Virus record (IMG/VR): IMGVR_UViG_3300042301_003333
Span: 1 to 55,966 of that record
Length of the DNA: 55,966 nucleotides
Direction: 5' to 3' (one strand)
Source of the DNA: a virus
Lineage: Duplodnaviria; Caudoviricetes
The first letter of the stretch is position 1; each line of letters starts with the position of its first letter. The position numbers were made by a program, and so were the translations under genes. Positions 3,502-54,553 of this stretch are shown in pieces. Under the pieces are notes generated by a model. That model was not told where the DNA came from, did not search any database, and was given only the letters and a program-made list of their open reading frames with translations.

Positions 3502-4524
3502 ATGCCGAACCGAATCATCAAGGACGCGATTCTCGTCAGCGCGAACATCGACCAGCTTACGGCCGACGAGGAGCGGTTTTTCTTCCGTCTCCTCCTTATC
3601 TCGGACGACTACGGCCGGTTCGACGCCCGCCCGCCGGTCATCCGGGGGCGTGCCTACCCGCTCAAGCCCGAAGTGACCGATCAGCACGTCCTGTCGTGGA
3701 TTGCCAAGCTGGTCGAGGTCGACATCCTGCACGCCTACGAGGTCAAGGGCGCGAGGTTCATCGGTTTCTCGAACTGGCACACCTATCAGAACGTCCGCGC
3801 CGGCAAGAGCAAGTACCCGAGTCCCGAGGGTGCGCAACTCTTGCACTCGGAGGACATTGTCGGCAACGGCACGCCCCTGCTTGCGCCTGCGATCATCTGC
3901 AAGCAGATGCAATCAGATGATCCGTCTTCTCGTATCTCGTCTCTCGCTTCTCGCTTCTCGTCTCTCGGTTCTCGTGTCTCGCCTCTCGTCTCTTCTCCCG
4001 AACCTTCGCCGGCTGACGCCGGCGCGGAAGGCGACCTCGGACCGGCACCCCTCCTGCTGGCAGAGACGACCGACCCGCAGCCCGCAACCCCCGCCCGCCC
4101 GACGCCCGCCGTCGACGCCACCGGACAGGCAAGCCTCATCCCGGCCACCGGCAAGCCCGACCGCCGCCGCAAGCCCGCAGGCGAGCCTGAGGACGAACCG
4201 ACCGCCACGGCTGATCTGGACCGCTGGGTGGCCCGCTACGTCGAGCTCAAGCGCCCGCCGTTCCCGCCCGCACTGACGAAGGAGGACCGGATCTTCTTCT
4301 TCCAGCAGCGCAAGGCGCGTGGCATCGACGAGCTCGTCTGGGTGCTCGAAGTCCTGCACGGCGACTCGTACAGCGCCCACCTCCCCATCCGCGCCCTCGT
4401 CGCGCCCGAGGCCGCCCAGAAGGCCGCCGGCCTCAAGGCGAAGGTCGTCCAGTCGGCTGGCCCGCAACCCTCCAAGCACATCACCGGCCGCGACCTCGAC
4501 GGCCTCTGGGCCGGCGAAGCCTAG
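3502..4524 (+). CDS. Phage replication initiator / replisome organiser
   Basis: MPNRIIK...FFRLLLISDDYGRFDARP N-terminus, low-complexity linker, directly upstream of a DnaC-like ATPase. Confidence 0.85.
   Translation: MPNRIIKDAILVSANIDQLTADEERFFFRLLLISDDYGRFDARPPVIRGRAYPLKPEVTDQHVLSWIAKLVEVDILHAYEVKGARFIGFSNWHTYQNVRAGKSKYPSPEGAQLLHSEDIVGNGTPLLAPAIICKQMQSDDPSSRISSLASRFSSLGSRVSPLVSSPEPSPADAGAEGDLGPAPLLLAETTDPQPATPARPTPAVDATGQASLIPATGKPDRRRKPAGEPEDEPTATADLDRWVARYVELKRPPFPPALTKEDRIFFFQQRKARGIDELVWVLEVLHGDSYSAHLPIRALVAPEAAQKAAGLKAKVVQSAGPQPSKHITGRDLDGLWAGEA
3928..3990 (+). repeat. Nine tandem TCTCGNN heptamers inside the initiator gene (candidate ori region)
   Basis: tctcgta tctcgtc tctcgct tctcgct tctcgtc tctcggt tctcgtg tctcgcc tctcgtc; 63 bp. 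Confidence 0.9.
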
Positions 4525-4547
4525 CCGCCGCCCGAAAGGAACCCGCC

Positions 4548-5312
4548 ATGAAGCCCCTGTCTGAACTCGCCCCCTGGGAAAACTACTCCGGCCCCGAACT
4601 CGAGGAGCGCGTCGATCTGCCGCCCGAGCCGGAGCCTGTCGCCCGACCTGAGCCCGTCGTCGTCACCCTCGACCCGAGCGACCGCCGTCGAGGCTGCCTC
4701 CGGTTCGCCGGCGTCGAGAACGAGCGCCTTGTCGAGACCATCGCGACCGGCCCCGCCTTCTGCCCCGCTTTGCCCGGTCACGAGGGTAGCCAAGCCGCCG
4801 TCGAGGCCGTCGCCGCCTTTCTCGCCCGTCCCGAGCTCGCCACCCTCGTCCTTGCCGGCAAGGCCGGTCGCGGCAAGACCTACGCCGCCATCTACCCACT
4901 CGCCCACCCGTCGCTCTGGGACATGGCGAAGCACAAGGTCTGCCAGTTCCTCCACGCCTCCCGCGTCACCGTCGGCGACCGCTGGACCGCCAAGCGGGAC
5001 GCCTGCATCGACGCCCACCTCCTCGTCGTCGACGACCTCGGCCGCGAGTCGGGCGATTGGGCGAGCGACCAGGTGCTCTCCCTCATCCTCGACCGCCACG
5101 ACAACGGCCGGAAGACCATCATCACGACCAACCTCCGCCGGTCGTCCAAGGTCGTCACACCCGAGCAGGCCGCCCAGTACCGCAACCAGTTCATGGACCT
5201 GCGGTACACCGACAGCCTCATGTCCCGCCTGTCCGACCCGACCGCCACCCGCTTCGTCGTCTGCAGGGGCGACGACATCCGCCCCACTCACACGCAGGAG
5301 TCCGCCGAATGA
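4548..5312 (+). CDS. DnaC/IstB-like AAA+ helicase loader
   Basis: Walker A GKAGRGKT, Walker B LLVVDDLG, RHDNGRKTIITTN, SLMSRL. Confidence 0.9.
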   Translation: MKPLSELAPWENYSGPELEERVDLPPEPEPVARPEPVVVTLDPSDRRRGCLRFAGVENERLVETIATGPAFCPALPGHEGSQAAVEAVAAFLARPELATLVLAGKAGRGKTYAAIYPLAHPSLWDMAKHKVCQFLHASRVTVGDRWTAKRDACIDAHLLVVDDLGRESGDWASDQVLSLILDRHDNGRKTIITTNLRRSSKVVTPEQAAQYRNQFMDLRYTDSLMSRLSDPTATRFVVCRGDDIRPTHTQESAE

Positions 5313-6900: not shown

Positions 6901-6970
6901 AACGAAGGACACATCGAGGGACACTTCTTCTTGATCGAGGGACACCCCGAGGGATAGGGTGTCCTTCGAT
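6901..6970. repeat. Three direct and one inverted copy of a 12-mer A(T/A)CGA(G/A)GGACAC
   Basis: 6901-6912, 6913-6924, 6934-6945 and inverted GTGTCCTTCGAT at 6959-6970. Confidence 0.85.
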
Positions 6971-7886
6971 GTCCGAACGCTTCATCGACAAGGCGACCTA
7001 CCTACGGCTCGTCGAGGCGTTCCGAACGCACGGCACCAACTGGCGGCGCGTCTCCATCGAGGCGGACGTCAGCCGGAACACCGCCAAGCGGGCCTACAAC
7101 GCCGGCTGGCTCGACCGTTGGGAATGGGCACGACCCATCGCCTCGGTGCTCGCCGACGGGTCCGAGGAAGTCCGCGCCGCGCTGACCGCGACCGTCCAGG
7201 CCGAGCTCGAGGCCGAACGACGCGCCCGACCGAAGGCTCGTAACAAGGTCGCCGAGCGCCGAGCCGCCGAACGGCAAGCCGCCCTCGCCGACGCCGAGGC
7301 CCGCCGACAGGCCGACACGGTCGCCGAGGTCCAGCGCGCCGAGTCCGAGGCCGACGAGCTCCGCCGTCGCATTGCCGAGCAGGCGCTTCGGGAACGGGAG
7401 GAAGCCGCCCGAGCCCGAGCGGCCAAAGAGGCGGCCGAGGAGGCCGAGCGCGAGAAGGCCCGCCAACAGGCGCTCGAGGCCCGCACGCAGGAGGCTCAGC
7501 TCGTCCGTCTGGCTCGAGGCGCCGCCATCGGTACCCTCGGCGGGACGATGAGGCTCATGCCGGGCCTCGCTAAGCTGGCCGACCAATTGAGGGCCGCCAT
7601 CGACGCCGGCCAGATTCCCATCGACAAGGCCGCCTCGACCATCGGGCAGATCAGTCGCACGGTGAAGGACGCGACCCTCGCCGCACAGGTGGTTATCGAG
7701 CTCGAGCGCCTGCACGTCGGCGCCCCGCAAGCGATCATCGGCGTCGTGCAGCATGAGATCAGCGTCGACGAGGCGGTGTCCGCCGTCCAAGAGGCCGAGG
7801 CCGCAGTCCAGCGCGCCCGGCAACTCGGGCTCGTCGCAGAGCAACAGAACGCCCTCGGGGCGCGAACGAAGGTGGCAGAGGCATGA
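6969..7886 (+). CDS. Probable terminase small subunit (N-terminal HTH plus long coiled coil)
   Basis: NWRRVSIEADVSRNTAKRAY HTH, Ala/Glu/Arg coiled coil; heads the operon containing terL. Confidence 0.6.
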   Translation: MSERFIDKATYLRLVEAFRTHGTNWRRVSIEADVSRNTAKRAYNAGWLDRWEWARPIASVLADGSEEVRAALTATVQAELEAERRARPKARNKVAERRAAERQAALADAEARRQADTVAEVQRAESEADELRRRIAEQALREREEAARARAAKEAAEEAEREKARQQALEARTQEAQLVRLARGAAIGTLGGTMRLMPGLAKLADQLRAAIDAGQIPIDKAASTIGQISRTVKDATLAAQVVIELERLHVGAPQAIIGVVQHEISVDEAVSAVQEAEAAVQRARQLGLVAEQQNALGARTKVAEA

Positions 7887-8164: not shown

Positions 8165-8487
8165 GAAAGCCCGACCACGTCCAGGTCGTCGTCCGCAAGC
8201 ACCCGCGAGGGCGGACCACCAACGTCGAGTGCTCGCTCTGCGGTACGTCGCAGCCGCTCGTCGTCCCCGGTCGGCGCGTCCCGTCCGAGGCCAACATCAA
8301 CCGGATCATCCACCTCTTCGGCGCCCTGCACGACCAGACCTGCCGCGACCGAGTGGAGGGGCTCGTCGCCGCGCTCAAGGCCGAGGCGGCGCAGGCCGAG
8401 GCGCCGGCCGAGGCAGCAAAGGTCGAAACCACCTTCTACCGGCACGTCAGCGACACCGCGCCGACCGACCCCGAGGTGCAGCCGTGA
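8161..8487 (+). CDS. Hypothetical protein with CxxC and HxxxC
   Basis: ATGA-coupled; CSLC, HDQTC. Confidence 0.65.
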   Translation: MRKPDHVQVVVRKHPRGRTTNVECSLCGTSQPLVVPGRRVPSEANINRIIHLFGALHDQTCRDRVEGLVAALKAEAAQAEAPAEAAKVETTFYRHVSDTAPTDPEVQP

Positions 8488-8852
8488 CCGCCACCGAGAC
8501 TGACGCCAAGCGGCAATCCGCTTTCATTCGCACCATACTGAAAAAGGACTGTCTGCCGAGTCACTGCGGCGCTTGCGGTCGGTGCGCGTGGGTCGTCGAG
8601 GAGGTCTACTGCATCGAGCGGCTCGATGGCCCCAAGTCGAGGGTCGTCGAAGGCATTCTCGGGTTCCCGTTTGGGTCGAACAGCTTCTTCCCTGTCCTTC
8701 CTGTCTGGTGCGGCAAGTGCGGGAACACGCACCTGTTTAACGCCATCGTGCTCGGGATCGTCGACCGTGACGGGAAGGTCTGCGTCAACCTCGACGAGAC
8801 CATGCCGTCGGGATGGGTCGAAGAGACCAAGACAACCGAGGTGCAGCCGTGA
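8484..8852 (+). CDS. Zinc-ribbon hypothetical protein flanked by 18-bp direct repeats
   Basis: GTGA-coupled start; CGACG...PVWCGKCGNTHLFNA; more AT-rich codons than neighbours. Confidence 0.65.
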   Translation: MTATETDAKRQSAFIRTILKKDCLPSHCGACGRCAWVVEEVYCIERLDGPKSRVVEGILGFPFGSNSFFPVLPVWCGKCGNTHLFNAIVLGIVDRDGKVCVNLDETMPSGWVEETKTTEVQP

Positions 8853-9037
8853 CGCCCGAGGAGCTCATCACGCTCGACTGCTGCGAGCGTGCCGAGGACA
8901 CCGGCCTCGTGACCTTCAACGAGGACAGCGTCCGTTGGGAGATCGTCCGACTGCAGCCCGACGGGTCGACCGTCGCCACCGGCATTGACCGCTGCCCATG
9001 GTGCGGCAAATGGCTGCGCCACCTCATCGCCGGATGA
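8849..9037 (+). CDS. Small Cys-rich hypothetical protein
   Basis: GTGA/ATGA-coupled; CC...IDRCPWCGK. Confidence 0.65.
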   Translation: MTPEELITLDCCERAEDTGLVTFNEDSVRWEIVRLQPDGSTVATGIDRCPWCGKWLRHLIAG

Positions 9038-11211
9038 CCAACCCGTCCGTCTACGACCGCGAGACGGCCGAGCGCCTCGCGATGGTCGAGCTCCGCCGCG
9101 CCGGGCAGCGGGCGAGGCAGGCGCACTACGCGCTGGCAGCGGCCGACCCGCTCTCGTTCGCCGAGATGGTCCTGCGCGACACGGCGACCGGCGAGAAGAT
9201 CAAGCTGTCGGGCGAGCAGATTCGGTGGCACCTCGCCGCCGAGCGCAGCCGTCGCACGGTCCTTTGGGCGCACGACCAGTCGGGCCGGTCGCTCTGGGCG
9301 GTGTCCCGCATCCTGCACACCCTCGGGAAAAACAGGAACGCGCGCATCGTCATCGTCGGTCGCACCCTGCCGGCGGCTCGGACGGTCCTCGGGCTCGTCG
9401 CCCGCTACCTCGACTCGTCGCCCGAGCTGCGGCATGTCTTCCCCGACCTGCGCCTCGATGGCGAGCCGAAGGCCCGCAGCCTCGCCGTCGCCGGCCGAGT
9501 CCACCGCGACCCGTCGGTGCAGGCCGTCGGGACCGGCCTCGGCCTCGTGTCCCGCGCCCCCATCGACCTGCTCGTCATCGACGACGCCCTCGCCGACGAG
9601 CACGTCCGCACGCCCGGCGCGCGCCAGCTCATTCGCGACTGGTTTGAGGCGGTCCTTTTTGCATCCGTCTCGCCCTTCGGGCAGGTCGTCGCCCTCGGGA
9701 CGCCGCTGCACCCCGAGGACGCCGTCTCCCGCCTCGCCTCGCAGCCTGACGTGCAGGTCGTCCGCTCGCCGGTCGTCGACGCCGCCGGCGTCCCGACGTG
9801 GCCCGAGAAGTGGTCCGTCGAGCGCGTCGAGCGGCGCAAGAAGGACATGGACGAACAAGCGTGGCAACGCCGGATGCTCGTCGCGCCCATCCTCTCGGCC
9901 GACATGCGGACCGCCGCCGAGCCGCTCAACTCGTTCATCGAGCGCGTATCGGGCGGCTCGCTCATCGCCCCGCGTCACCTCGCGCCCCTCGTCGCCCTCC
10001 TCGAGCGCGCCCGACACGAGCCGGTCCGAGCCGTCGTCTCCGCCCCGCCGCAGCACGGCAAGTCCGAGACGATCATGCACGCGCTCGCGTGGCACCTCGC
10101 CCAAGACCCGACGCGAACGCACGCATACGTCACCTACGCGGGCAACTTCGCGACCGACCAGAGCCGGCGCATCCGGTCAATCACCGACTCGGCCGGCGTC
10201 GAGATGTCCGACCAGGCGGCGCTCCGTCGCTGGCGCACCGCTCGAGGCGGCGGGCTCATCGCCGAAGGCGTCTCGGGCCAACTCACGGGTAAGAGCGTCG
10301 ACGGCATTTTCGTGATCGACGACCCCTACAAGGACCGCGTCGAGGCCGAGAGCGCGTTGAAACGCGAACGGGTATGGCAGTTCTTTACCGACGTCGCGAA
10401 GACGCGTTTGAACCCGGCGGCCTCCGTCATCGTCGTCCATACCCGCTGGCACGAGGACGACCTCGCCGGTCGACTCGCCAAGCAGGGCTGGGAGCGGGTC
10501 AACCTGCAGGCCGTCTCGCCCGAGGGCGCCCCGCTCTGGCCCGAGCGGTACACGCCCGCGTGGCTCAAGGAGCAGCGCGAGGCGCTCGGCGAATACTCGT
10601 GGGCCTCCCTCTATATGGGCGAGCCACGCCCGCGAGGCGGCGCCGTCTTCCGCGACGTCCGCCTGTACGACCCGCAGACGACCGTGGTCCGCTCGCACGT
10701 CTGGCGTGTGGCCATCGGCGTCGACCTTGCGTACACCGCTCGCGCCAAGGCCGACTACTCGACCGCCGTCGTCCTCGCCGCCGACGGGCAAGGCGTCTGC
10801 TACGTCCTCGACGTCATCCGGGCGCAGGTCGAGGCGCCCGCCTTTGCCTACCAGCTCGCGCAGCTCAAGCAGCGGTACGCCGCCCCGATCCTCTGGTACG
10901 CCGCCGGCACCGAGCAGGGCGTGGCGCAGTTCATCCGCAACCAAGGCGTGCCGCTCGAGGTGCAGGCACCGAAGGGCGACAAGTTCGTGAGGTCGATGCC
11001 GGTCGCCGCCGCGTGGAACGCCTCACGAATCTCGGTCCCGATGAACGCCGCATGGAGCAACGCCTTCGTGGAGGAGGTGCTCGCCTTTACCGGCGTCGGC
11101 GACCTGCACGACGATCAGGTGGACGCCCTCGCCGCCGCCTACGACCAGCTGTTCCCGCAAGTCGCGACCCCGGTCGCGCAAGTCCTCAACCTCGACCTCC
11201 GACGCCGATGA
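9034..11211 (+). CDS. terL: Terminase large subunit with a duplicated ATPase region
   Basis: Intact ATPase (SAPPQHGKS, VIDDPYKD, HTRWHEDDL, LWPERY), RNase H-like nuclease (GVDLA, DYS, GDKFVR, HDDQVDA), plus an N-terminal degenerate ATPase. Confidence 0.92.
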   Translation: MTNPSVYDRETAERLAMVELRRAGQRARQAHYALAAADPLSFAEMVLRDTATGEKIKLSGEQIRWHLAAERSRRTVLWAHDQSGRSLWAVSRILHTLGKNRNARIVIVGRTLPAARTVLGLVARYLDSSPELRHVFPDLRLDGEPKARSLAVAGRVHRDPSVQAVGTGLGLVSRAPIDLLVIDDALADEHVRTPGARQLIRDWFEAVLFASVSPFGQVVALGTPLHPEDAVSRLASQPDVQVVRSPVVDAAGVPTWPEKWSVERVERRKKDMDEQAWQRRMLVAPILSADMRTAAEPLNSFIERVSGGSLIAPRHLAPLVALLERARHEPVRAVVSAPPQHGKSETIMHALAWHLAQDPTRTHAYVTYAGNFATDQSRRIRSITDSAGVEMSDQAALRRWRTARGGGLIAEGVSGQLTGKSVDGIFVIDDPYKDRVEAESALKRERVWQFFTDVAKTRLNPAASVIVVHTRWHEDDLAGRLAKQGWERVNLQAVSPEGAPLWPERYTPAWLKEQREALGEYSWASLYMGEPRPRGGAVFRDVRLYDPQTTVVRSHVWRVAIGVDLAYTARAKADYSTAVVLAADGQGVCYVLDVIRAQVEAPAFAYQLAQLKQRYAAPILWYAAGTEQGVAQFIRNQGVPLEVQAPKGDKFVRSMPVAAAWNASRISVPMNAAWSNAFVEEVLAFTGVGDLHDDQVDALAAAYDQLFPQVATPVAQVLNLDLRRR

Positions 11212-11438
11212 CAAAGAACAAGACGAAGCCAAAAGCCAAACGCATCCACACCGACGAGGCGCTGCCCGTCTGGGCGCTCGACTCCGGCCACGACGGCCTC
11301 CTCGAAATCTACGCGGTGAACGGCCGCCTCGAACTGCGCTGTGACCTGACCTTCGTCAACGACGACTCCGACGACGAGGACGGCCTCGCCCGGCTCAAGG
11401 AAGAGGCGGCGGGCTACGCCGAGGGGAATCGGGAATGA
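11208..11438 (+). CDS. Hypothetical protein
   Basis: ATGA-coupled at both ends; MTKNKTKPK... Confidence 0.6.
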   Translation: MTKNKTKPKAKRIHTDEALPVWALDSGHDGLLEIYAVNGRLELRCDLTFVNDDSDDEDGLARLKEEAAGYAEGNRE

Positions 11439-12316
11439 GCGCAGCCGACGAGATCAAGGCTCGCCTCGCCGGTCGCCGCGTCGTCGCCAGCGTCAGCGGC
11501 GGCAAGGACTCGGCCGCCATGTCGCTCTACCTGACCGAGCTCGGCATCGAGCACGACCGAGTCTTCTGCGACACCGGCTGGGAGCACGACCTGACCTACG
11601 AGTACCTGCGCGGGCCGCTCGTCGAGAAGCTCGGGCCGATCACTTGGCTGGAGCCCAAGCGGAAGATGGAAGAGCTGATTCTTCACAAGGGCATGTTCCC
11701 GAGCCGGCAGCGCCGCTGGTGTACGCAGGAACTCAAGGTCCGTCCTTTGGCGCGACACTTCAAGGCCCGGATGGACGAGGGTGACGACATCGTCAACGCG
11801 GTCGGGATTCGCGCGGCCGAGTCCGAGTCGCGGTCCAAGATGCCCGAATGGGAGTGGCAGGACGGTTTTGACTGCGAGGTCTGGCGACCGCTCCTGCGGT
11901 GGTCCGAGCAGGACGTCATCGACATTCATCACAGGCACGGGCTTCGACCGAACCCGCTCTACCTGCGCGGGGCGCAGCGCGTGGGCTGCTGGCCGTGCAT
12001 CTACGCCCGCAAGGACGAGATCAAGTTGATTGCCGACACTGACCCTGACCGCATCGTCCGTCTGCGAGTGCTTGAAGGACAGGTGGCTGAGAAGGCGCAC
12101 GCCCGAGCCGCCGAGAAAGGCGAGACGCTCAAGAACGACCCCGCGTGGTTCCAGGCGAAGAACGGGGGCACTGGCGACTGCTGGCCCATCGACAAGGCCG
12201 TCGAGTGGTCGAGGACGGCCCGAGGCGGAAAGCAGTTTGAACTGTTCGCCGCCGACTCTCGGGATGCGGGATGCATGAGGTGGGGACTCTGTGAGACGAA
12301 TGGGAGGTCTGAATGA
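11435..12316 (+). CDS. PAPS reductase-family (CysH/DndC-like PP-loop) protein
   Basis: SVSGGKDS, DTGWEH, RWCTQELK, GIRAAES, RVGCWPC. Confidence 0.88.
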   Translation: MSAADEIKARLAGRRVVASVSGGKDSAAMSLYLTELGIEHDRVFCDTGWEHDLTYEYLRGPLVEKLGPITWLEPKRKMEELILHKGMFPSRQRRWCTQELKVRPLARHFKARMDEGDDIVNAVGIRAAESESRSKMPEWEWQDGFDCEVWRPLLRWSEQDVIDIHHRHGLRPNPLYLRGAQRVGCWPCIYARKDEIKLIADTDPDRIVRLRVLEGQVAEKAHARAAEKGETLKNDPAWFQAKNGGTGDCWPIDKAVEWSRTARGGKQFELFAADSRDAGCMRWGLCETNGRSE

Positions 12317-13104: not shown

Positions 13105-14874
13105 ATGTCGAGCGGCACACTGGTGGACTGGACGGCCACGCAAACCGTCTTCGGAGCTGCGATAGGCGGGGGCGCGATTCCCGATCAGTCGGACATCATG
13201 GGGCGCATCAAGCGCCTCGGCATGTCGCCGCGCCAGGTCGAGCTGAACCATCTGTGGAGCATCTATAGATCCGCTCAGTATGAGACCTGCTCGTCCGAGT
13301 GGGACGGGTCGCAGAAGATCAGTCGCATCGACCGCGAGGCGATCAACTCGGGCGCCTACATCCCGCCGGGCTTCTACGACCTCGGCGCGATGCTGCCACT
13401 GCGGTTCCGCAAGCCGACCGCGCCCTACCCGCTCGCCCGCGTCATCGTCGACCGCTTCACGAGCCTGCTGTTCAGCGAGAAGCGCCACCCGCGCGTCAAG
13501 GTCGAGGACGACGACGCGACGGACGATTATGTCGGCGCGCTGCTCGAGGCGTCTCGCTTCTGGCCGACGTGGATGCAGGCGCGTGGCTTCGGCGGCGCGA
13601 TGGGCTCGGTGGCCGTCGGCTTCTCCATCCTCGCCGGCAAGCCGCACCTCGAGATCTTCGACCCGCGATGGGCAACGCCGACCTTCGTCTCCCGCACCGG
13701 CAACGAGCTCAAGCGGATCGAGGTGCTCTACCAGTACCCGCGCGAGATCTACGACGGCGAGACGGGCGTCTGGCGCGAGGTGCCGTTCTGGTATCGCCGC
13801 GTCATCGACGCCGAGCGGGACATCGTCTACCGCTCCATCCCGGTCACCGACGAGGCGCCGGTCTGGCAGGTCGAGAACGAGGTCGTCCACGGGCTCGGCG
13901 AGGTTCCGGTCGTCTGGGTGCAGAACACCCCGAGCCAGGACGATGCCGACGGCGACAGCGACTATCACGGCGTCCTCGAGATGCTGCATGCCATCGACCA
14001 GCTTCTCGCCCAGGCGCAGATCGGCACCATCGCGAACGCCGACCCGACGCTCGTCATCTCGACCGACGCCTCGCTCCCGCCCGATCTCGCGAAAGGCTCG
14101 CGCGCCCCGATCCAGCTCCCGTCCTCGGGCAAGGCTCAGTACCTCGAGCTGCAGGGCATCGGCGCGAAGGCCGCGACCGAGCTCGCCGACCTCTACCGCA
14201 AGCGCGTCCTCGAGGCGTGCCACTGCGTGCTCGACGACGCCGCCAGCGACGGCAGCGCGAAGGTCCGCCGCACCGCGACCGAAATTGAGCGCAGCTACGC
14301 GGCGATGATCGCCCGCACCGACGTCCTGCGCGAGCAGTGGGCCGAGATGGGGCTCAAGCCGCTCCTGCGGAAGATGCTGCGAGCCATCCGACACGTCGAG
14401 CAGGGGCGCGTCGGCGAGGACGGCCGAGTCGTTCGCGGCGTCGTCGTCATACCGCCGCACATCGACCGCGACGCGAACGGGAAGATCGTCGGCAAGCGTC
14501 CCCGCGAGATCGGCGAGGGCGAGGTCATCGAGCTCGTCTGGCCGTCGTACTTCGAGCCGACCATCGACGACGCGGACACGGCCGTGAAGACCGCCGCCGC
14601 CGCGCTCGCCGGCCAGCTCGTCGACCAGGAGGCCGCCGTCGCGTACGTCGCGCCGTTCTTCCACGTCGGCGACCCGAAGGCGATGGCCGACCGCATCCGC
14701 AACGAGGCGGCCAAGCAGGCCGCGCTCGTCGCCGGCATCGAGGCGGGTCTGCCCGCCGGCGAGGTCATCGACGGTCCCGGCGGCGCCTCGCCGTTCGCGG
14801 CCGAGGACGAGCCCGCTGAGGACGAGCAGCCGGTCGAGGGCGAGGACGTCGAGGAGGCGGAGGTCGAGGCGTGA
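13105..14874 (+). CDS. Portal protein (SPP1-like)
   Basis: LARVIVDRFTSLLFS, HGLGEVPVVWVQN, GDSDY, acidic tail; size and position after terL. Confidence 0.85.
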   Translation: MSSGTLVDWTATQTVFGAAIGGGAIPDQSDIMGRIKRLGMSPRQVELNHLWSIYRSAQYETCSSEWDGSQKISRIDREAINSGAYIPPGFYDLGAMLPLRFRKPTAPYPLARVIVDRFTSLLFSEKRHPRVKVEDDDATDDYVGALLEASRFWPTWMQARGFGGAMGSVAVGFSILAGKPHLEIFDPRWATPTFVSRTGNELKRIEVLYQYPREIYDGETGVWREVPFWYRRVIDAERDIVYRSIPVTDEAPVWQVENEVVHGLGEVPVVWVQNTPSQDDADGDSDYHGVLEMLHAIDQLLAQAQIGTIANADPTLVISTDASLPPDLAKGSRAPIQLPSSGKAQYLELQGIGAKAATELADLYRKRVLEACHCVLDDAASDGSAKVRRTATEIERSYAAMIARTDVLREQWAEMGLKPLLRKMLRAIRHVEQGRVGEDGRVVRGVVVIPPHIDRDANGKIVGKRPREIGEGEVIELVWPSYFEPTIDDADTAVKTAAAALAGQLVDQEAAVAYVAPFFHVGDPKAMADRIRNEAAKQAALVAGIEAGLPAGEVIDGPGGASPFAAEDEPAEDEQPVEGEDVEEAEVEA

Positions 14875-15314
14875 TCATCTGCATCGACTTCGACTCGACC
14901 CTTGTCGACGAGTGGGGCCGGAAGTTCTCGGACGTCACGACGCCGCTCAAGCTCATGGGCGGCGCTCGCAAGGCGCTACAGGCGATGAAGGCCGCAGGCC
15001 ACGTCGTGCTCGTCTCGTCGGCGCGAGCAAACCGCGCCCTCCGCATCGACCCCGAACTCGACCCGCTCGTCCGAGCCGGCGTCGTGAAGCTCGACCGCAA
15101 GGCGTGGGAGGCCGAGCAGCCGCTCCACGAGGCGCGCTACCAGCAGATGGTGCAGTTCTGCGCGACGCAGCTCAAAGGGCTCGTCGACGCGGTGGACGAC
15201 GGCGGGCAGGGGAAGCCCGTGGCGGACCTCTACATCGACGACCGGGCGCTTCGGTTCGGTGGCGGCGTGGATGGTCACAACTGGTTCGACATCGCCCGCC
15301 AGTTCGGGGCGTGA
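14871..15314 (+). CDS. HAD-superfamily phosphatase-like protein
   Basis: ICIDFDSTL (motif I), GKPVADLYIDDRA (motifs III/IV). Confidence 0.8.
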   Translation: MIICIDFDSTLVDEWGRKFSDVTTPLKLMGGARKALQAMKAAGHVVLVSSARANRALRIDPELDPLVRAGVVKLDRKAWEAEQPLHEARYQQMVQFCATQLKGLVDAVDDGGQGKPVADLYIDDRALRFGGGVDGHNWFDIARQFGA

Positions 15315-15333
15315 CACGGGAAGACGGGAGACG

Positions 15334-16491
15334 ATGCACCAGGGGACATTTGACTTGCGGGAGGGCGACGCGCTCGACGTGCTGCGCTCGCTGCCCGATG
15401 CGTCCGTCAACCTCGTCGTGACGGACCCGCCGTACTTCAAGGTGAAGGCCGAATGGTGGGACCGGCAGTGGGAGAAGCCCGCCGGATTCCTCGCGTGGAT
15501 GGGGCAGCTCGTCGACGAGTGGCGGCGCGTGCTCAAGCCGAACGGCTCTCTCTACGTCTTCGCCTCGCCGCAAATGGCTGCCCGCGTCGAGGGCGTCGTC
15601 GCCGAGCGCATGAAGGTGCTCAACAGCATCGTGTGGGCAAAGCCGCGCTTCTCGACGAAGGCCGAGATGTTCGTCAAGGGCGACCAGCGCGCCTTCTTCC
15701 CTGCCACCGAGCGCATCGTCTTCGCGGAGCAGTTCGGCACCGACAACATGGCGCGAGGCGAGGCAGGCTACGCCGCCAAGTGCAACGAACTGCGGTCGCT
15801 CGTCTTTGAGCCGCTGCGCGCTTACCTAGACGGCGAGCGCGAGAGGGCGGAGCTGTCGCGAGTGGAAATCGCTCGCGCATGGGGGGGGCTTCGCAAGGAG
15901 AAAAAGCGTAGCGACATGACATCGCACTGGTTTGGTCAGTCACAATGGCAGTTGCCAAGCCGAGCAAGCTACGAGTGGCTCCGTGCGCTGTTTAACGAGG
16001 CGCAGCCGGGCGGAGACTTGCTCGCTCGCGAGTACGAAGGGTTGCGGCGCGAGTACGAAGGGTTGCGGCGCGAGTACGAAGGGTTGCGGCGCGAGTACGA
16101 AGGGTTGCGGCGTCCGTTCGAGGTGTCCGACGAAGTGCCGTACACCGACGTCTGGACGTTCCCGACGGTGCCGCACCGCCCCGGCAAGCATCCATGCGAG
16201 AAGCCGGCGGACCTCATTCGGCACATCGTGCGGGCCTCGTCGCGCCCCGGCGACGTCGTGCTCGACTCATTTGCCGGCTCGGGCGTCGTCGGGCGCATCG
16301 CCATCGAGGAAGGCCGGTCGTTCATCGGCTCCGAGATCGACCCGCACTGGGTCGCCGTAGCACGTCGCAGCATCGACGCCGCACAACCCGTCGCCGCGAC
16401 AACGGGCGGGGCTAGGGACTCGACGAGAAAGACGCGAACGGGGACCGCCTCGCCGTCGCAAGGCTGGTTGTTCGCACGGGAGACGGCATGA
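15334..16491 (+). CDS. N6-adenine/N4-cytosine DNA methyltransferase (beta class)
   Basis: VTDPPY, HPCEKP, VLDSFAGSG; ATG 15334 with GGGAG RBS. Confidence 0.92.
   Translation: MHQGTFDLREGDALDVLRSLPDASVNLVVTDPPYFKVKAEWWDRQWEKPAGFLAWMGQLVDEWRRVLKPNGSLYVFASPQMAARVEGVVAERMKVLNSIVWAKPRFSTKAEMFVKGDQRAFFPATERIVFAEQFGTDNMARGEAGYAAKCNELRSLVFEPLRAYLDGERERAELSRVEIARAWGGLRKEKKRSDMTSHWFGQSQWQLPSRASYEWLRALFNEAQPGGDLLAREYEGLRREYEGLRREYEGLRREYEGLRRPFEVSDEVPYTDVWTFPTVPHRPGKHPCEKPADLIRHIVRASSRPGDVVLDSFAGSGVVGRIAIEEGRSFIGSEIDPHWVAVARRSIDAAQPVAATTGGARDSTRKTRTGTASPSQGWLFARETA
15881..15888 (+). repeat. G8 homopolymer inside the methyltransferase, currently in frame
   Basis: TGG GGG GGG CTT. Confidence 0.9.
16027..16110 (+). 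repeat. Four perfect 21-bp tandem repeats encoding REYEGLR
   Basis: CGCGAGTACGAAGGGTTGCGG x4. Confidence 0.95.
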
Positions 16492-22386: not shown

Positions 22387-23808
22387 ATGGCTGACTTTTC
22401 CGTCATTGCCCAGAGCGGCCAGGTCCGCGCTCTCGTGCAGGAGGGCTTGCTCGAGCGCGCCTTCCACGACTCTCTCTTTCCCCGCATGTTGTTCCGTGGC
22501 GATGCCGAGCAGAAGGCTTGGACCGCGAACCTCGGCGATTCGATGTACTTCACGGGCGCCGGGCTGCTCGACATCAGCCTGAAGCCGCAGCAGGCGAACG
22601 TCGACCCGACCCCGTCCACCTACTCGAACGAGCAGTGGATCGGCCAGCTCAACAGCTACTCGGGCAGCATCGACACGAACATCCCGACGAGCGTCAACGC
22701 CATCGCGGACCTGTTCGTTCGCAACGCCCAGCAGCTCGGCCTCGCGGCGGCGAAGACGATCAACCGCCTCGCCCGTGACAAGATGTACAACGCGGCCCTC
22801 GACGGCCAGACCGTCGCCGACGGCGCGGCGTCCTCGGGCGCCTCGACCATCGCGGTCAAGCGGCTCAACGGCTTCACCACGGCGCGCAATCCCGGTCTGC
22901 CGAGCGGCTCGCCGGTGCGCTTCGCTCCGGTGACCAGCGGCAACCCGCTCGCCATCCTCATCAACGTCGGCGGCTCGCTCGTCGCCAACACGGTCGTGGG
23001 CTACGTCCCCGGCGTCGCCGGTGACGAGATCGGGCCGGGCTCGCTCGTGCTCGGCACGCCGCTGTCGGGCAACGTCTCCGACCGCGCCGCCATCCTCGCG
23101 GTCGACCGCTCGGTCGTCATCCGCGCCGCGACGAACGGCGGGCAGGGCATCAACTCGACGGTGGACTCAGTTGACGCCGTGTTCTCGATGACCCAGATCC
23201 GCGCGGCGGTCGCCCGCTTCCGCCAGCAGAACGTCCCCGAGTACGCCGACGGGTCGTTCCACTCGCACCTCGACCCGATCTCCGAGGCCGAGATCTACGA
23301 GAGCACCGAGTTCCAGCGCCTCAACACGAGCTTGCCGGACTATTACATGTACCGGCAGTTCGCCATCGGCCAGATGCTCGGCGTCACGTTCTTCCGCAAC
23401 ACGGAGTGCCCGGTCAAGGAGACCGTCATCGGCGCCGGCGACAGCAACGCGACCGAGGTCTTCACGCAGGATGATCCGTTCGCGGGCGAGATCTGGAACG
23501 CCTCGAACACCGAGATCCACCGCGTGCTGTTCAGCGGTCAGGGCGGCCTGAACGAGTACTACCAGGACGTCGGCCAGTACATCACCGACGCCGGCCTGAC
23601 GGGCAAGCTCGCGACGCCCGCCATCACGAACAACGGCATCGAGGTGAACAGCGACAAGATCACGCTGATCATGCGCGCGCCGCTGAACCGCCTGCAGGAC
23701 CTCGTGTCGACCTCGTGGCGCTACGTCGGCGACTTCGTCGTCCGCACCGACGCCGCCGTGGGCGACAAGAGCCGCTACAAGCGCATGCTCACCGTCGAGC
23801 ACAAGTAA
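22387..23808 (+). CDS. Major capsid protein
   Basis: 473 aa after the scaffold; strongest codon bias in the region; QLGLAAAKTINRLARDKM helix and IGQMLGVTF. Confidence 0.85.
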   Translation: MADFSVIAQSGQVRALVQEGLLERAFHDSLFPRMLFRGDAEQKAWTANLGDSMYFTGAGLLDISLKPQQANVDPTPSTYSNEQWIGQLNSYSGSIDTNIPTSVNAIADLFVRNAQQLGLAAAKTINRLARDKMYNAALDGQTVADGAASSGASTIAVKRLNGFTTARNPGLPSGSPVRFAPVTSGNPLAILINVGGSLVANTVVGYVPGVAGDEIGPGSLVLGTPLSGNVSDRAAILAVDRSVVIRAATNGGQGINSTVDSVDAVFSMTQIRAAVARFRQQNVPEYADGSFHSHLDPISEAEIYESTEFQRLNTSLPDYYMYRQFAIGQMLGVTFFRNTECPVKETVIGAGDSNATEVFTQDDPFAGEIWNASNTEIHRVLFSGQGGLNEYYQDVGQYITDAGLTGKLATPAITNNGIEVNSDKITLIMRAPLNRLQDLVSTSWRYVGDFVVRTDAAVGDKSRYKRMLTVEHK

Positions 23809-26818: not shown

Positions 26819-28819
26819 ATGGGCGCAGGCTTCATTCAGCGGTTCGGGTCGTTCCCGTCCGTTCAGCAGATTCAGACCATCGAAGGCGTCGTGATCATCG
26901 ACGGCGTCGGGCCGGCGCAGATTCAGGGCACCGGGACCGGCGTGGTCGGCATCGTCGGCGAGTTTGCTGACGTGTCGTACGCGGTGCAGGTCGAGGGCGG
27001 CAACGTCACCTCGGCGCCGCAGCCCGTCTTCGTGACCAGCGACGCCGACCTCGTCTCGAAGGTCGGTCCGTTCGACCCGACGCTCGGCCAGTTCGGCGGC
27101 GCGTGCGGCAACGGCCTCGCTGACATTCGCGGCAAGCGGTTCGCCGGGCTCGTCGTGGCGCCCATCAACCTCGCCTCGTCGAAGGCCGTCCGCCTCGTGC
27201 GCGACCTGCCGACGAACGCCTCGGCGTCGAACCCCTCGCCGGTCGTCCCGATGGTCGGCGCGACCGTCGTCGCCGGTACGCTGTTCCAGGACAACGCGGC
27301 CGAGAAGCAGACGAAGTCCGCCGGCGCGGTCGTCTTCTCGTCGGTCGGGGCGTACGCCTCCGGCGTCGACGGCGTGTCCGTCGCCGGCGGCGCCTCGGGC
27401 GGCCAGCTCTTCAATAGCGCGGGCGGCGCGTTCGTGACGAACGGCGTGTCGGTCGGCGACGCCATCGTCATCGGCGTTCTCGGGACCGACGACGACGCCG
27501 GCACCTATCGCGTGCGGCAGGTCGTCTCGGAGACGCAGCTCGTCGTCGGGCAGCTCGACGGGACCAACTTTTCGTGGGCCGGTGACACGGCGCTCCCGTG
27601 GCGTATCCACGTCGCGGCGACGGCCGACTCGGGCGCGGGCCTGTTCTCGGCGGTAACGCAGTTCACCGTGCCTGCGCGTCCCATCATGGAGAGCGTGGCG
27701 AACGACGTCGTCCTGACGCCGGCCGTGCCCGCCGCTGCGGCGACGGCGACCTCGTGGCAGCCGCTCTCCGGCCTCAAGCTCTGCACGCAGCCCGGCTCGG
27801 GCAACGGTCTGGCCTACACGGCCGCCGTGCAGGCGCCCAACGCGGCGAACAGCACCGAGATCCTCGCGAAATACGGCGAGGTTCTCTCCGCGCTCGAGAG
27901 CGACAGCGACCCGGCGAACACCATCAACATCGTGATGTGCTCGCGCGCCGCGCGGCTCAACGCCTACAACCTGCGGCAGCTCGCCGTGAACCGATCGCAG
28001 GCCGGCCTCGGCATGGTTGCGGTCGTGGCGCCGGGTCTCGCCTGCCAGACGCTTGGCGAGGCCACCTCCTCGAGCTCGGGCGCGACGACGGACCAGGTCT
28101 TCGGTGTGGCGGCCATCGACGCCGCCGGCCGCTCGGACCGCGTCATCTACACCTGGACCGGCGTGCGTCAGTACAACGCCGACGCGGTCGGTATCAGCAT
28201 CGCCACCGCTACGGGCGGTTCGACGACCGACGGCGTGCTCGACCTGACCGCCGCCGGCCACCTGTGCTCGGTGCTCTCGCTCATCCAGCCGGAGCGCAAC
28301 CCCGGCGAGCTGACCGACGTCACTCAGTCGGCGCTCTCGACGGTGCTCGGGCAGCAGCGCGGCGCGCCGGTCCTGACGCGGGCCGACTACGAGGTCATGA
28401 AGTCCTTCGGCATCTGCGGCATCCGTATCGACCGCTCGAGCGGGCCGGTCTTCCAATCGGGCATCACGACGAGCCTGACCTCGGGCCGCACGCGCATCAG
28501 CCGCCGCCGGATGGCCGACTTCATCCAGGACAGCCTCGCGCGTCAGTACAACCTGTACGTCAAGCAGCTCATGAGCGAGAACATCAAGACCGCGCTCATC
28601 ACCGAGACGGACGGGTTCCTCGCGGGCCTGCTGGCGCGGGCGACGCCGAACCTGCAGCGCATCGCGGGCTACACGGTCGACTCGACCGGCGGCAACACGC
28701 CGGAGCTCGAGGCGCAGGGCATCTACGTCATCGGCGTCGCGGTTCGTCTGCTCTCGGAAATGGACAACATCGTCCTGTCCAGCCAGATCGGCGAGAACGT
28801 GGTTGTCACGGTGGTCTAG
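26819..28819 (+). CDS. Contractile tail sheath protein
   Basis: EGVVIID...TGVVGIVGEF N-terminus; SGITT...ISRRRMADFIQDSL C-terminus. Confidence 0.9.
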   Translation: MGAGFIQRFGSFPSVQQIQTIEGVVIIDGVGPAQIQGTGTGVVGIVGEFADVSYAVQVEGGNVTSAPQPVFVTSDADLVSKVGPFDPTLGQFGGACGNGLADIRGKRFAGLVVAPINLASSKAVRLVRDLPTNASASNPSPVVPMVGATVVAGTLFQDNAAEKQTKSAGAVVFSSVGAYASGVDGVSVAGGASGGQLFNSAGGAFVTNGVSVGDAIVIGVLGTDDDAGTYRVRQVVSETQLVVGQLDGTNFSWAGDTALPWRIHVAATADSGAGLFSAVTQFTVPARPIMESVANDVVLTPAVPAAAATATSWQPLSGLKLCTQPGSGNGLAYTAAVQAPNAANSTEILAKYGEVLSALESDSDPANTINIVMCSRAARLNAYNLRQLAVNRSQAGLGMVAVVAPGLACQTLGEATSSSSGATTDQVFGVAAIDAAGRSDRVIYTWTGVRQYNADAVGISIATATGGSTTDGVLDLTAAGHLCSVLSLIQPERNPGELTDVTQSALSTVLGQQRGAPVLTRADYEVMKSFGICGIRIDRSSGPVFQSGITTSLTSGRTRISRRRMADFIQDSLARQYNLYVKQLMSENIKTALITETDGFLAGLLARATPNLQRIAGYTVDSTGGNTPELEAQGIYVIGVAVRLLSEMDNIVLSSQIGENVVVTVV

Positions 28820-29772: not shown

Positions 29773-29993
29773 GCCTCGCGGAGCTCGCCGTCGCACTTGA
29801 CGCGGTGAGCGTGGCCGAGCGCGTCGCGGCCGTCTGGCGGCTGCTCGCCTTCGTCGGACGATACGGGCATCAGTCGGTCGACGCGCTCCTGCGGATGACC
29901 ATCGCCGACCTCGCGGCGTTCTCGCTGGCCCTACAGGAGCTCATGAACAAAGAGGGCGATCCTCTTCGTGAGCGCATCGCGGCGGGTGGCTGA
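29739..29993 (+). CDS. Probable -1-frame extension of the tail assembly chaperone
   Basis: -1 frame open to TGA 29991-29993, coupled to the TMP start; WRLLAFVGRYGHQSVDALLRMT; start coordinate is the putative slip site. Confidence 0.55.
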   Translation, partial: FSRQRGHRSGLSLAELAVALDAVSVAERVAAVWRLLAFVGRYGHQSVDALLRMTIADLAAFSLALQELMNKEGDPLRERIAAGG

Positions 29994-31432
29994 TGGCTGT
30001 CACGAACATCGTCGACCTGGTCTTCAAGGTCACCGACAACGCAACCGGACCGGCCAACCGGCTGAGCGGTGCCATGTCGGGGCTCTCGTCAGCGGCTCGC
30101 ATCGCGGCGGGTGCTCTCGGCGCCATCGGCGTCGGCGTCGGCATCAAAGAGGTCATCGGCCTCAGTTCCGACTACGAAAAGCAGGTGCTCAACATCGCCT
30201 CGAAGCTGCGCGCCTTCGGCTTCGCGGGTCCGTTCGAGGAGGCCGAACTCGCGACGCGCTCGGCGCTCAAGAGCATCGAGGACTTGGCGGCCAAGCTGCC
30301 CGGCGAGGCGGCTGACTACACGACGGTCTTCACGCAGATCATGCCGAAGGCGATTGCCTCTGGCATGACCAACATGAAGGACATTGTCGACTTCACGGCG
30401 CGCTACACGGCTGGAATCAGCGGCAGCGGCATCGACGCAGGGCAAGCGGCGATGGACATGGTCCGCATGCTCAGTGGGCAGGCGGGCGCCGACGTCCGCA
30501 CGTTCACCGAACAGATCCGCGACCTCCTGCCGGTGCAGTTGCAGTCGGCCGAGGCGTTCAACAATCTCTCGGCCGAGGCTCGCCGCGTCGAACTCGATAA
30601 GGTGTTCAAGTCGACGGCCATCGCCGAGAAAATGACGAAGGCCGCCGACACGCTCGACAGCAAGCTCGGCGAGGTCATCTCCAAGGTCAAGGCGATGATT
30701 CGCGAGTCGAGCAAGCCAATGTTCGAGGGCGCGAAGCGACTGCTCGAGGAGCTGAGCAAGTTCATCACGGACAACGAGGCGCAGATCCTCGGGCTCGGCA
30801 AGCTCATCGGGCAGGGGCTACAGGACGCGGTCGCGCTCGCGCTGCCGGCGCTGCAGTTCATGCTGCGGCACCTTGAGGGCATCGCCCGCGTCATGGCGGT
30901 CGTCTTCGGGTTCTGGGCCGGCTCGCAGTTGACGGCGATGCTGTCGGGGCTTGGCGCCCTCGCAAAGCAGATTCAAATCCTGTACGGCGCGATGCGCGCG
31001 TTTGGCGTCATGACCGCAGTCACCGGCATGATTCAAGAGGCGATGGGCAAGGGCTGGGTCGGAATCGCGAGCGCGCTCGGAAAGGCGGCTGTCGTCGGTG
31101 GCGCAGTTGGTCTTGCGCTGTACGAGGTCAACAAGGCGTTCGACAAGATGGGCGAGAAGCCGCTCGCGCTGCCAAAGCTCGAGGACATCACGCTTCCGAA
31201 GGTCGAGATTCCTGAGCCCGCCGCGAAGAAGAAGGAAGAGGGCGAGAAGGTCCGCAAGGGTCCACCGAAGGCCGAGGTGTACATCGAGAACGCCCGATTC
31301 GACATCAAGCAGGCGTTCGCCGAGGGCTTCGACCCGGACCGTATCGCGGCGGCGTTCGTCGAGCAGATCGGCTCGACGACGATGTACATGGGGCAGTCGT
31401 CGTTCGCGGCCGCTGCGACGGCGGGGGCATAA
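29993..31432 (+). CDS. Tape measure protein (short, 479 aa)
   Basis: FKVTDNATGP start; Ala/Gly helical with hydrophobic segments; gene order. Confidence 0.8.
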   Translation: MAVTNIVDLVFKVTDNATGPANRLSGAMSGLSSAARIAAGALGAIGVGVGIKEVIGLSSDYEKQVLNIASKLRAFGFAGPFEEAELATRSALKSIEDLAAKLPGEAADYTTVFTQIMPKAIASGMTNMKDIVDFTARYTAGISGSGIDAGQAAMDMVRMLSGQAGADVRTFTEQIRDLLPVQLQSAEAFNNLSAEARRVELDKVFKSTAIAEKMTKAADTLDSKLGEVISKVKAMIRESSKPMFEGAKRLLEELSKFITDNEAQILGLGKLIGQGLQDAVALALPALQFMLRHLEGIARVMAVVFGFWAGSQLTAMLSGLGALAKQIQILYGAMRAFGVMTAVTGMIQEAMGKGWVGIASALGKAAVVGGAVGLALYEVNKAFDKMGEKPLALPKLEDITLPKVEIPEPAAKKKEEGEKVRKGPPKAEVYIENARFDIKQAFAEGFDPDRIAAAFVEQIGSTTMYMGQSSFAAAATAGA

Positions 31433-53752: not shown

Positions 53753-54113
53753 CGAGAAGCCCTGCCGTCGAAACGACGACGGCTCGGTGACCTGTTCCGA
53801 GGTCGGGCTCAAGGCGCTGACCGACGCGGTACTCGACGCTCGAGCGCAGAGCGTCGCACTCACGTCGAAGCTCAACGCGGCGCAGGTCGACAAGACCGAG
53901 TTGCGGCACATGCTCGACGTCTGCCGTGCGGACCTCAAAGCCGTGCCGCCGCCTCCCGACCCGACGTGGCAGCGCGTCGGCTACTCGCTCGGCGTTGCCG
54001 GCGGCGCGATGCTTGCGAGCGTGCCCTGGGCGGAGACCGTCGACCGGCGCGCGGCCCTCGGCGGCTTTGGCGCGGCGGCCTTGGCGGCTGGCTTCCTCGT
54101 CGTGACCTGGTAG
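53676..54113 (+). CDS. Exported spanin-partner-like protein (signal peptide, coiled coil, C-terminal hydrophobic hairpin)
   Basis: AGGAG RBS before GTG 53676; FWAAALLLASTAARA-DEK; PPPPDP; two Gly/Ala-rich hydrophobic segments. Confidence 0.55.
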   Translation: MTPSTWRTTSFWAAALLLASTAARADEKPCRRNDDGSVTCSEVGLKALTDAVLDARAQSVALTSKLNAAQVDKTELRHMLDVCRADLKAVPPPPDPTWQRVGYSLGVAGGAMLASVPWAETVDRRAALGGFGAAALAAGFLVVTW

Positions 54114-54478: not shown

Positions 54479-54506
54479 TCGCGCACCTTCGCACCGCGCG
54501 TTGCCG

Positions 54507-54535
54507 TTGTCACGCGGTAGCGTTTCGCGTACCGT
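54507..54535 (+). promoter_or_regulatory. Possible sigma70-type promoter for the helicase
   Basis: TTGTCA-17 nt-TACCGT in the divergent gap. Confidence 0.35.
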
Positions 54536-54553
54536 GCGCGTCTTCCGACAGGG

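Follow-up and report, generated by a model that had tools for sequence, protein, structure and literature searches.

The window analysed here is the entire record of a tailed-phage genome (IMG/VR record IMGVR_UViG_3300042301_003333; Duplodnaviria, Caudoviricetes), a single contig of 55,966 bp that encodes a large terminase subunit (TerL). TerL is usually described as having one ATPase and one nuclease. The TerL of the window has two ATPase units in tandem and one nuclease. The first unit, here called the N unit, belongs to the TerL clade that is T7 gp19-like (N-type), and the second unit belongs with the nuclease to the clade that is recognised by the Pfam domains Terminase_6N and Terminase_6C (C-type). 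We put at about even the chance that this protein is a natural chimera in which a C-type TerL took the place of the catalytic core of an N-type TerL, and in which the old ATPase was kept as a non-hydrolysing adaptor, most likely for the cognate small terminase subunit (TerS).

Two ATPase units of different ancestry and one nuclease

The coordinates of all features are collected in Table 1, and residue numbers follow the 737-residue reading of the open frame 8998..11211 on the plus strand. In Pfam, Terminase_6N was found at residues 348-552 (23.7 bits, cut-off 22), which is the second unit, and Terminase_6C at residues 573-716 (33.8 bits, cut-off 22.6). No Pfam match was obtained with residues 1-311. 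Taken alone this result would wrongly suggest an N-terminal extension of unknown nature, and a Pfam-based annotation misses the extra ATPase domain. With the PHROGs profiles, residues 34-304 aligned to the ATPase part of the TerL profile phrog_38 (profile positions 259-527, E 1.7e-31). The second unit matched positions 293-708 of the same profile (E 1.4e-76), which overlap the region matched by the N unit, and it also matched phrog_4758. An earlier reading, made from the sequence only, had expected two Terminase_6N matches. Pfam found only the second unit, but the ATPase region of phrog_38 was matched by both.

The N unit alone was searched exhaustively with HMMER against 1.84 billion representatives, and 2648 proteins matched at E<=1e-3. 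The best matches outside the family of tandem proteins were the N-terminal ATPase domains of TerLs of about 490-580 residues, with about 35% identity and E values of about 1e-40. The AlphaFold2 (AF2) model of the N unit, based on the 80-row alignment A4, had a mean predicted local distance difference test score (pLDDT) of 92.7 and a predicted template modelling score (pTM) of 0.89. When this model was compared with the Protein Data Bank (PDB) by Foldseek, ranks 1 to 10 were all TerLs (best E 1.1e-10). The TerLs of PhiV-1, P74-26, T4 (gp17) and Sf6 were among them, and those of HK97 and D6E followed just below the top 10. The N-terminal region, for which the lack of a P-loop fold had been considered, is thus modelled with the fold of a TerL ATPase, and the claim of two tandem TerL ATPase units with one nuclease was borne out by PHROGs, HMMER and AF2 with Foldseek. 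The coordinates that had been read for the motifs WAHDQSGRS and SAPPQHGKS were exact.

In the tree of the N units, the N unit of the window was placed within the N-type clade, which was separated from the C-type ATPase domains by a branch with a support of 100. In a separate tree of the C part, the C part was placed within the C-type clade. The two ATPase units of the window are 24% identical over 132 residues and are therefore diverged orthologues and not the product of a recent duplication, in agreement with the proposal of the sequence-only reading that they come from different TerL subfamilies. In the mixed alignments A3 and A6, MAFFT put the N-type homologues onto the second unit in both cases.

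A search of the PDB with the profile of alignment A4 matched the threading model of T7 gp19 (4bij, E 1.1e-23) and the PhiV-1 TerL (8dgc_E, E 2.4e-23), which was also the top Foldseek match of the N unit. T7/T3 gp19 and the PhiV-1 TerL are the closest solved relatives of the N-type clade and share with the N-type TerLs the block GxxxGxRxDxxIxDD. The N unit lacks the Arg of this block. Unlike these proteins, it also has no Walker A Lys and no nuclease domain of its own, and a relic of an N-type nuclease was not found elsewhere in the 56-kb genome.

Residues 313-737 make up a complete TerL of the canonical Terminase_6N/6C type, for which Pfam uses a T4 gp17-like naming, with a Walker A GKS, a Walker B DD, the HTRWHEDD block and an RNase H-like nuclease, and the window gene likewise lies upstream of the portal gene. 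The ATPase motifs SAPPQHGKS, VIDDPYKD and HTRWHEDDL were invariant in the family alignment A1, and the nuclease residues D576, D705, D706 and D709 were invariant in the family. A phmmer search with the C part gave no match among the PDB sequences. Compared with a canonical TerL of this clade, the window protein has about 290 extra N-terminal residues, which form a second ATPase domain, and its last 12 or so residues resemble the tails of another TerL clade.

TerLs that carry an intein occur in both clades and are long like the window TerL (580-1280 residues). Their extra length is a Hint/LAGLIDADG intein within the single ATPase or nuclease domain, as seen in 9 of the 14 long relatives scanned, and a second ATPase unit was not found in them. 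Inteins (Hint_2, LAGLIDADG_3, Intein_splicing) are common in both clades, for example in P0018-P0021 and in many N-type matches of 640-1280 residues. They often interrupt the ATPase right after the Walker A region; P0020 reads RHGK and then continues with the intein.

Distribution of the tandem TerL and integrity of the junction

The tandem layout was found in 13 full-length protein clusters of 725-737 residues with 57-100% identity, which came from NCBI, JGI, ENA and Logan assemblies, and no frameshift or stop was observed in these clusters. With the window protein 80 IMG/VR loci were retrieved. Five of them had the tandem gene, two were cut by the contig end and 73 had a single ATPase. A separate N-like gene was not found in the flanks of these 73 C-type loci. 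Since this gene and an N-type nuclease relic were both missing, a split-gene origin is not visible.

Misassembly at about 9880-9930, where the two units are joined, had been named as a possible flaw. This region was crossed without joints by contigs (Logan contigs, not raw reads) from 4 of 4 sequencing runs other than the possible source run, and two of them were identical to the window. The runs that contain this DNA are metagenomes of lake water. At the level of contigs the junction is therefore sound. The chance that the tandem form is an artefact of assembly or gene calling is negligible, since the clusters came from four kinds of source, five IMG/VR contigs carry the gene, independent runs bridge the junction and the frame is continuous.

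Among 50,697 phage records, 1793 matched the whole TerL and none of them covered at least 80% of the protein; a tblastn search of the same records with the N unit gave just two weak TerL matches. This collection thus has no cultured phage with the tandem layout. No report of a tandem-ATPase TerL was found in full-text literature searches on two or tandem ATPase domains, nor among the matches listed for chimeric terminases and partner specificity. A search by terms in a 2026 review of the packaging machinery gave no mention of tandem, duplicated or pseudo-ATPase TerLs (PMC13595956).

Residue losses and selection in the N unit

The Walker A Lys is replaced by Arg97 in all 13 full-length family clusters, as the sequence-only reading had noticed for the window. 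Among 69 single N-type TerLs, 99% have Lys at this position. A set of 53 columns was at least 80% conserved in these singles, and 28 of them were kept unchanged in all 10 aligned family members. The Arg at position 188, seven residues before the first Walker B Asp, is 99% conserved in the singles and was lost in all 10 members, where it is Pro and in one member Ala. Among the further residues replaced in all 10 members are W157 (now Pro or Ala), H244 (now Ser or Gln) and K129, together with the changes S121G, G186R and R223S. The description of the first unit as degenerate is thus strengthened beyond its Walker A.

Other parts of the N unit were kept. The Walker B residues D195 and D196 were invariant in the family, and the GTP.H.ED block and the WPE.W block were also conserved. 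The arginines R204 and R209 after the Walker B were kept too, and the Arg gained at position 186 lies two residues before the lost position 188. The most densely invariant block is the P-loop, where 7 of the 8 residues from W90 to R97 were invariant. In total about 88 columns within the N unit were invariant, by our own count from the list of invariant columns.

In the P74-26 TerL the trans-acting finger R139 lies between alpha2 and beta3, just ahead of the Walker B strand (PMC5727402). From its position we infer that the lost R188 may be the equivalent of this finger. Because the Walker A Lys and the Arg before the Walker B are both lost, the N unit probably no longer hydrolyses ATP. Its P-loop is strictly conserved and it may therefore still bind nucleotide.

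The N unit has changed faster than the rest of the protein. Compared with the tandem locus L003, the identity was 48% in the N unit, 72% in the C-type ATPase and 63% in the nuclease, and across the family the N unit was 43-48% identical. The tree path from the window to P0013 was 1.44 for the N unit and 0.54 for the C part, so that the N unit evolved about 2.7 times faster. The ratio of nonsynonymous to synonymous substitution rates (dN/dS, Nei-Gojobori) was 0.09-0.22 for the N unit in close pairs and 0.44 for the pair L003/L005; for the C-type ATPase it was 0.09-0.11 in the same pairs. With values of 0.09-0.44 the N unit is still under purifying selection.

The TerS-like gene and a sister phage without the N unit

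The genes of the window were compared with their neighbours in the 73 C-type loci and in 78 N-type loci, the latter obtained from a second scan of viral contigs. The TerS-like open reading frame (ORF) upstream of TerL matched 13 N-type loci at E<=1e-4, or 20 when the limit was set at E<=1e-3, and it matched none of the 73 C-type loci. In eight loci, two of them tandem (L003/L004) and the others L088, L102-104 and L131/132, the end of its homologue is 107-330 nucleotides (nt) upstream of TerL, the position of a TerS gene. The N-type loci L110-L112 and L144 are unlike the others in that the orientation is divergent: the match to the helix-turn-helix (HTH) part of the TerS-like protein is 34 nt from the start of TerL but on the other strand.

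TerS proteins have an N-terminal HTH, a central helical oligomerisation region and a C-terminal domain that binds TerL (PMC7617512). The AF2 model of the TerS-like protein had this layout, with a three-helix N-terminal domain, a helix from residue 66 to 212 and C-terminal helices. Two of its 16 homologues matched the Pfam family Terminase_2 (PF03592; best E 2.8e-6). The window protein and its closest relative (L002) have an extra stretch of about 55 residues rich in Ala, Glu and Arg in the central coiled coil (columns of about 120-170 in alignment A5), and this stretch is absent from the other 14 homologues.

A complex of the N unit with residues 150-305 of the TerS-like protein was predicted with a score of 0.47; the three runs gave 0.69, 0.47 and 0.08, and the best of three controls gave 0.00. 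The runs agreed in at least 29% of the contacts, and the pLDDT of the partner was at least 57. In the benchmark, 58 of 80 solved complexes and 2 of 110 mismatched pairs passed the score mark; these counts hold only roughly here, since the prediction was made with our own alignments. Scores above the mark and up to 0.60 were seen with just 7 of the 80 solved complexes and with both passing mismatches. The predicted complex lends weak support to an adaptor function of the N unit.

In the tree of the C part the nearest relative of the tandem family was P0017/P0020, with a support of 100. A scan of viral contigs for this clade gave the locus L162; a scan of metagenomes gave just an uninformative 1-kb fragment (L161). 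L162 encodes a single C-type TerL that has no N unit and ends in a tail (...MDIMRR) of the same kind as that of the window. The start of its portal is also window-like, with 53% identity over the 131 residues available. Directly upstream of its TerL is a different TerS (phrog_4102, E 1.4e-24). Relatives of this TerS precede the C-type TerLs in L010 and L017, and none was found in the window, in the tandem loci or in the N-type loci. L162 has the same portal type, another TerS and no N unit, so in this one sister locus the N unit appears to go with the N-type TerS and not with the portal type.

The C-terminal tail and the portal

The N unit had been proposed to serve docking to TerS or to the portal. 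For TerS this gained comparative support from the N-type TerS-like gene and from the contrast with L162, but the fit to the portal followed the C-terminal tail of the protein. The family TerL ends in ...LDLRRR, and its last 12 or so residues are of the N-type kind, with the C-terminal motif h-[DNST]-h-x-x-R, where h stands for a hydrophobic residue. The motif was found in 13 of 14 tandem proteins (the exception, P0120, is described below) and in 46 of 177 N-type singles. Among 131 proteins classed as C-type, 8 had the motif, namely 3 truncated family members and the sister clade P0017-21; the other 123 did not.

The portal of the window matched 36 of the 78 N-type loci, with up to 48% identity over about 560 residues (E 5e-154), and 2 of the 73 C-type loci, at 25% identity. 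Tail and portal were tabulated for those N-type loci (L083-L160) whose TerL is complete and which extend at least 3.5 kb beyond it. Here 18 loci had both the motif and a window-like portal, 2 the motif only, 12 the portal only and 30 neither (Fisher p 6e-6). Read from the listing, most of the 12 portal-only loci have near-motif tails that end in Arg. All 9 tandem loci had both the tail motif and a window-like portal, and 61 of 63 C-type loci had neither.

The conserved, positively charged C-terminal arm of TerL probably mediates portal docking (PMC5727402). The covariation of tail and portal fits such a role, and the last six residues of TerL may be a general portal-matching code. What is new here is that the portal, the TerS-like gene and the TerL tail of the window are all N-type in kind, as judged from their relatives.

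A second tandem TerL

P0120 is a metagenomic TerL of 782 residues, known as a single cluster from an 8.4-kb contig. Like the window TerL it consists of an N-type ATPase followed by a complete C-type TerL, and the two proteins are collinear with 40% identity over 698 residues. P0120 differs from the window protein in that its N unit contains a canonical GGKT and retains nearly all of the conserved N-type residues, and in that its tail is C-type. Its halves are 50-64% identical to single TerLs of the respective clades.

In the tree of the C part, P0120 was placed beside the single TerL P0268 and away from the window family. A tree with P0120 and the family as one clade of the C part was rejected (delta log likelihood 240; p 3.75e-9 in the approximately unbiased test), although this group was chosen with the tree already known. 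In the tree of the N units P0120 stood beside P0271 (support 98), and the corresponding constraint was not rejected (p 0.49), because the long branch of the family can attach almost anywhere. The singleton P0120 probably arose in a recent fusion of its own between these two clades, or else is a chimeric assembly.

Genomic context

The window has the gene set of a tailed phage, with a replication initiator and a DnaC-like loader at 3502-5312, a packaging and head module and a contractile tail. The TerL gene is part of a head-morphogenesis module and neighbours the portal gene; the positions of the genes for the major head protein and the sheath are given in Table 1. A direct terminal repeat was not found on the 55,966-bp contig. 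The open frame that encodes TerL is continuous, and the start at 9034 gives a protein of the same length as the database homologues. The ORF whose stop shares ATGA with this start is at 8813-9037. An internal start at M293, from which a free C-type TerL would be made, was considered; no Shine-Dalgarno-like purine run precedes it.

Table 1. Features of the window that concern the tandem TerL and its neighbours
Feature	Position (nt)	Strand	Remarks
TerS-like gene	6969..7886	+	N-terminal HTH, long coiled coil, conserved C-terminal segment
Whole TerL gene	9034..11211	+	725 residues and stop; the start at 9034 and the stop of the preceding ORF overlap as ATGA
N unit, putative relic N-type (T7 gp19-like) TerL ATPase domain	9034..9897	+	residues 13-300; phrog_38, HMMER, AF2, Foldseek
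Walker A-like P-loop WAHDQSGRS	9265..9291	+	residues 90-98; Arg97 where relatives have Lys
Walker B region SRAPIDLLVIDD	9550..9585	+	D195 and D196 kept; Pro at the Arg position 7 residues before the first Asp
Junction	9898..9960	+	RRMLVAP (equivalent to the RQLMC motif) ends the N-type ATPase; PLNSFIERV...HLAPL starts the C-type TerL
Canonical C-type ATPase domain	9961..10692	+	Pfam Terminase_6N, phrog_38, phrog_4758
C-type Walker A SAPPQHGKS	10039-10065	+	residues 348-356
C-type Walker B VIDDPYKD	10312-10335	+	
C-type HTRWHEDDL block	10438-10464	+	
Sole RNase H-like nuclease domain, C-type	10693..11172	+	Pfam Terminase_6C
C-terminal tail VAQVLNLDLRRR	11173..11208	+	N-type tail kind; C-terminal motif h-[DNST]-h-x-x-R
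Portal gene	13105..14874	+	relatives of up to 48% identity adjoin N-type TerLs
Major head protein	22387-23808		
Sheath	26819-28819		
Tape-measure-like gene	29993-31432		
Baseplate wedge	35842-36981		

Several other genes were noted in the window. Between the TerS-like gene and TerL are two small Cys-rich ORFs with CxxC pairs (frames 8229-8852 and 8813-9037; window positions 8484-9037), for which no family matches and no homologues in related loci were found. A PAPS-reductase-like gene (phrog_424, Pfam PAPS_reduct; 11435-12316) sits between TerL and the portal, and an N6/N4 DNA methyltransferase gene (15259-16491) directly follows the portal. Both look like cargo inserted into the packaging module; the PAPS-reductase-like gene had no match in any of the compared N-type and C-type loci. 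A long ORF on the minus strand (53981-55906) matched a RusA-like Holliday-junction resolvase in its C-terminal part (phrog_244, E 6e-12). Given the 69% G+C of the genome, the true gene is probably much shorter than this ORF.

Discussion

The chimera interpretation would imply the following course of events. In an ancestral phage lineage, an N-type TerL would have acted together with the TerS and the portal of that lineage. Its nuclease domain would then have given way to an entire C-type TerL. What is left of the N-type character would be the ATPase domain at the N terminus and, at the other end, a tail of about 12 residues. The C-type core, which has all catalytic motifs, would drive the ATP-dependent translocation and the cutting of the DNA, and the tail would attach the enzyme to the N-type portal. 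Kept by selection as an adaptor, the N unit would couple the foreign motor to the TerS of the lineage.

Several observations weigh against this interpretation. The TerS-like protein of the window matched no Pfam family at E<=0.001, its sole PHROG match was a weak one to a tape-measure protein (E 0.005), and its model gave no match at E<=1e-3 in a fold search of BFVD. The predicted complex with the N unit is graded weak, with one of the three runs at 0.08. The link between TerS and the N unit comes from the single locus L162, which covers 1.45 kb upstream of its TerL, and an N-type TerS may be encoded farther upstream. The lost Arg is equated with the trans-acting finger by its position in the sequence. 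Within a unit that as a whole is 43-48% identical, no stretch is better conserved than the P-loop, which fits a ligand-binding or even a catalytic site better than a pure docking surface. The direction of events, whether the N unit was retained or added later, rests on unrooted data. Finally, P0120 with its intact GGKT and its C-type tail shows that the tandem layout can go without a dead N unit and without an N-type tail.

The main rival explanation sees in the N unit a nucleotide-binding but non-hydrolysing module for assembly or regulation, a second ring that is stacked on the active ring and stabilises or gates the pentameric motor. Its P-loop, the Walker B DD and the GTP..H.ED block are invariant although the unit diverges quickly, and it is under purifying selection. 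P-loop ATPases in which the Lys is changed to Arg typically still bind nucleotide but no longer hydrolyse it. However, the sister phage, whose portal is of the same type, does without an N unit, and the lost Arg before the Walker B would probably also be needed for the subunit contacts of a ring. We regard this explanation as unlikely; it is compatible with TerS docking, and the two do not exclude each other. A working analogy may be the two-ring AAA+ machines of the NSF and p97 type, which carry ATPase domains in tandem on a single chain and use a catalytically weak one for assembly or regulation. They differ in that they belong to another ATPase superfamily and are hexamers, and the tandem of the window is a fusion of two diverged orthologues and not an internal duplication.

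It is quite improbable that both ATPase units are active, with Arg97 substituting for Lys, either as two coupled motors or with the first serving another step, for example initiation. The N unit retains every acidic Walker B and motif-III-like residue, and P0120 shows the same layout with a fully canonical first unit. Against such an activity stand the near-universal Lys of the single N-type TerLs, the loss of the Arg before the Walker B in every aligned member and the faster evolution of the N unit relative to the C part. In T4 gp17, conservative Walker A changes of Lys to Arg reportedly inactivate the enzyme.

A decaying remnant that has no function of its own, and is tolerated since its clean removal is rare, would account for the faster evolution and the lost catalytic residues. 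We hold this to be highly improbable, since the frame and the fold are kept down to an overall identity of 57%, no frameshifts or stops have entered the family, dN/dS is low and the invariant columns of the N unit include the whole P-loop.

The sequence-only reading had also offered the N unit as a decoy or shield against a defence of the Avs type that senses terminases, but no evidence was found for this very remote explanation: a TerL-like domain fused in cis adds a recognisable surface instead of hiding one, the match of the lineage with its TerS and portal explains the N unit without a defence, and the fact that its best solved structural match is a T7-like TerL in complex with Avs3 reflects the T7-like ancestry.

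The chimera interpretation could be carried further, though we offer this only tentatively and think it rather doubtful as a whole. The parts for partner specificity, an N-terminal module of the ATPase fold for TerS and a tail of about 12 residues for the portal, would be separable from an exchangeable catalytic core. As a nucleotide-binding pseudo-ATPase, the module would make up a second ring and pass signals from TerS to the foreign engine, and with P0120 the layout would have arisen at least twice.

If the protein is such a chimera, nature would have carried out in this family a domain swap on the packaging motor, with cores exchanged between distant phage lineages. It would offer a testable natural answer to the question which TerL surfaces carry the specificity for TerS and for the portal: a new catalytic core came in, and the N-terminal domain and the tail stayed with the partners of the lineage. 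The case would also add a pseudo-enzyme to the viral packaging motors. The covariation of tail and portal over dozens of uncultured phages is a usable predictor for matching terminases to portals.

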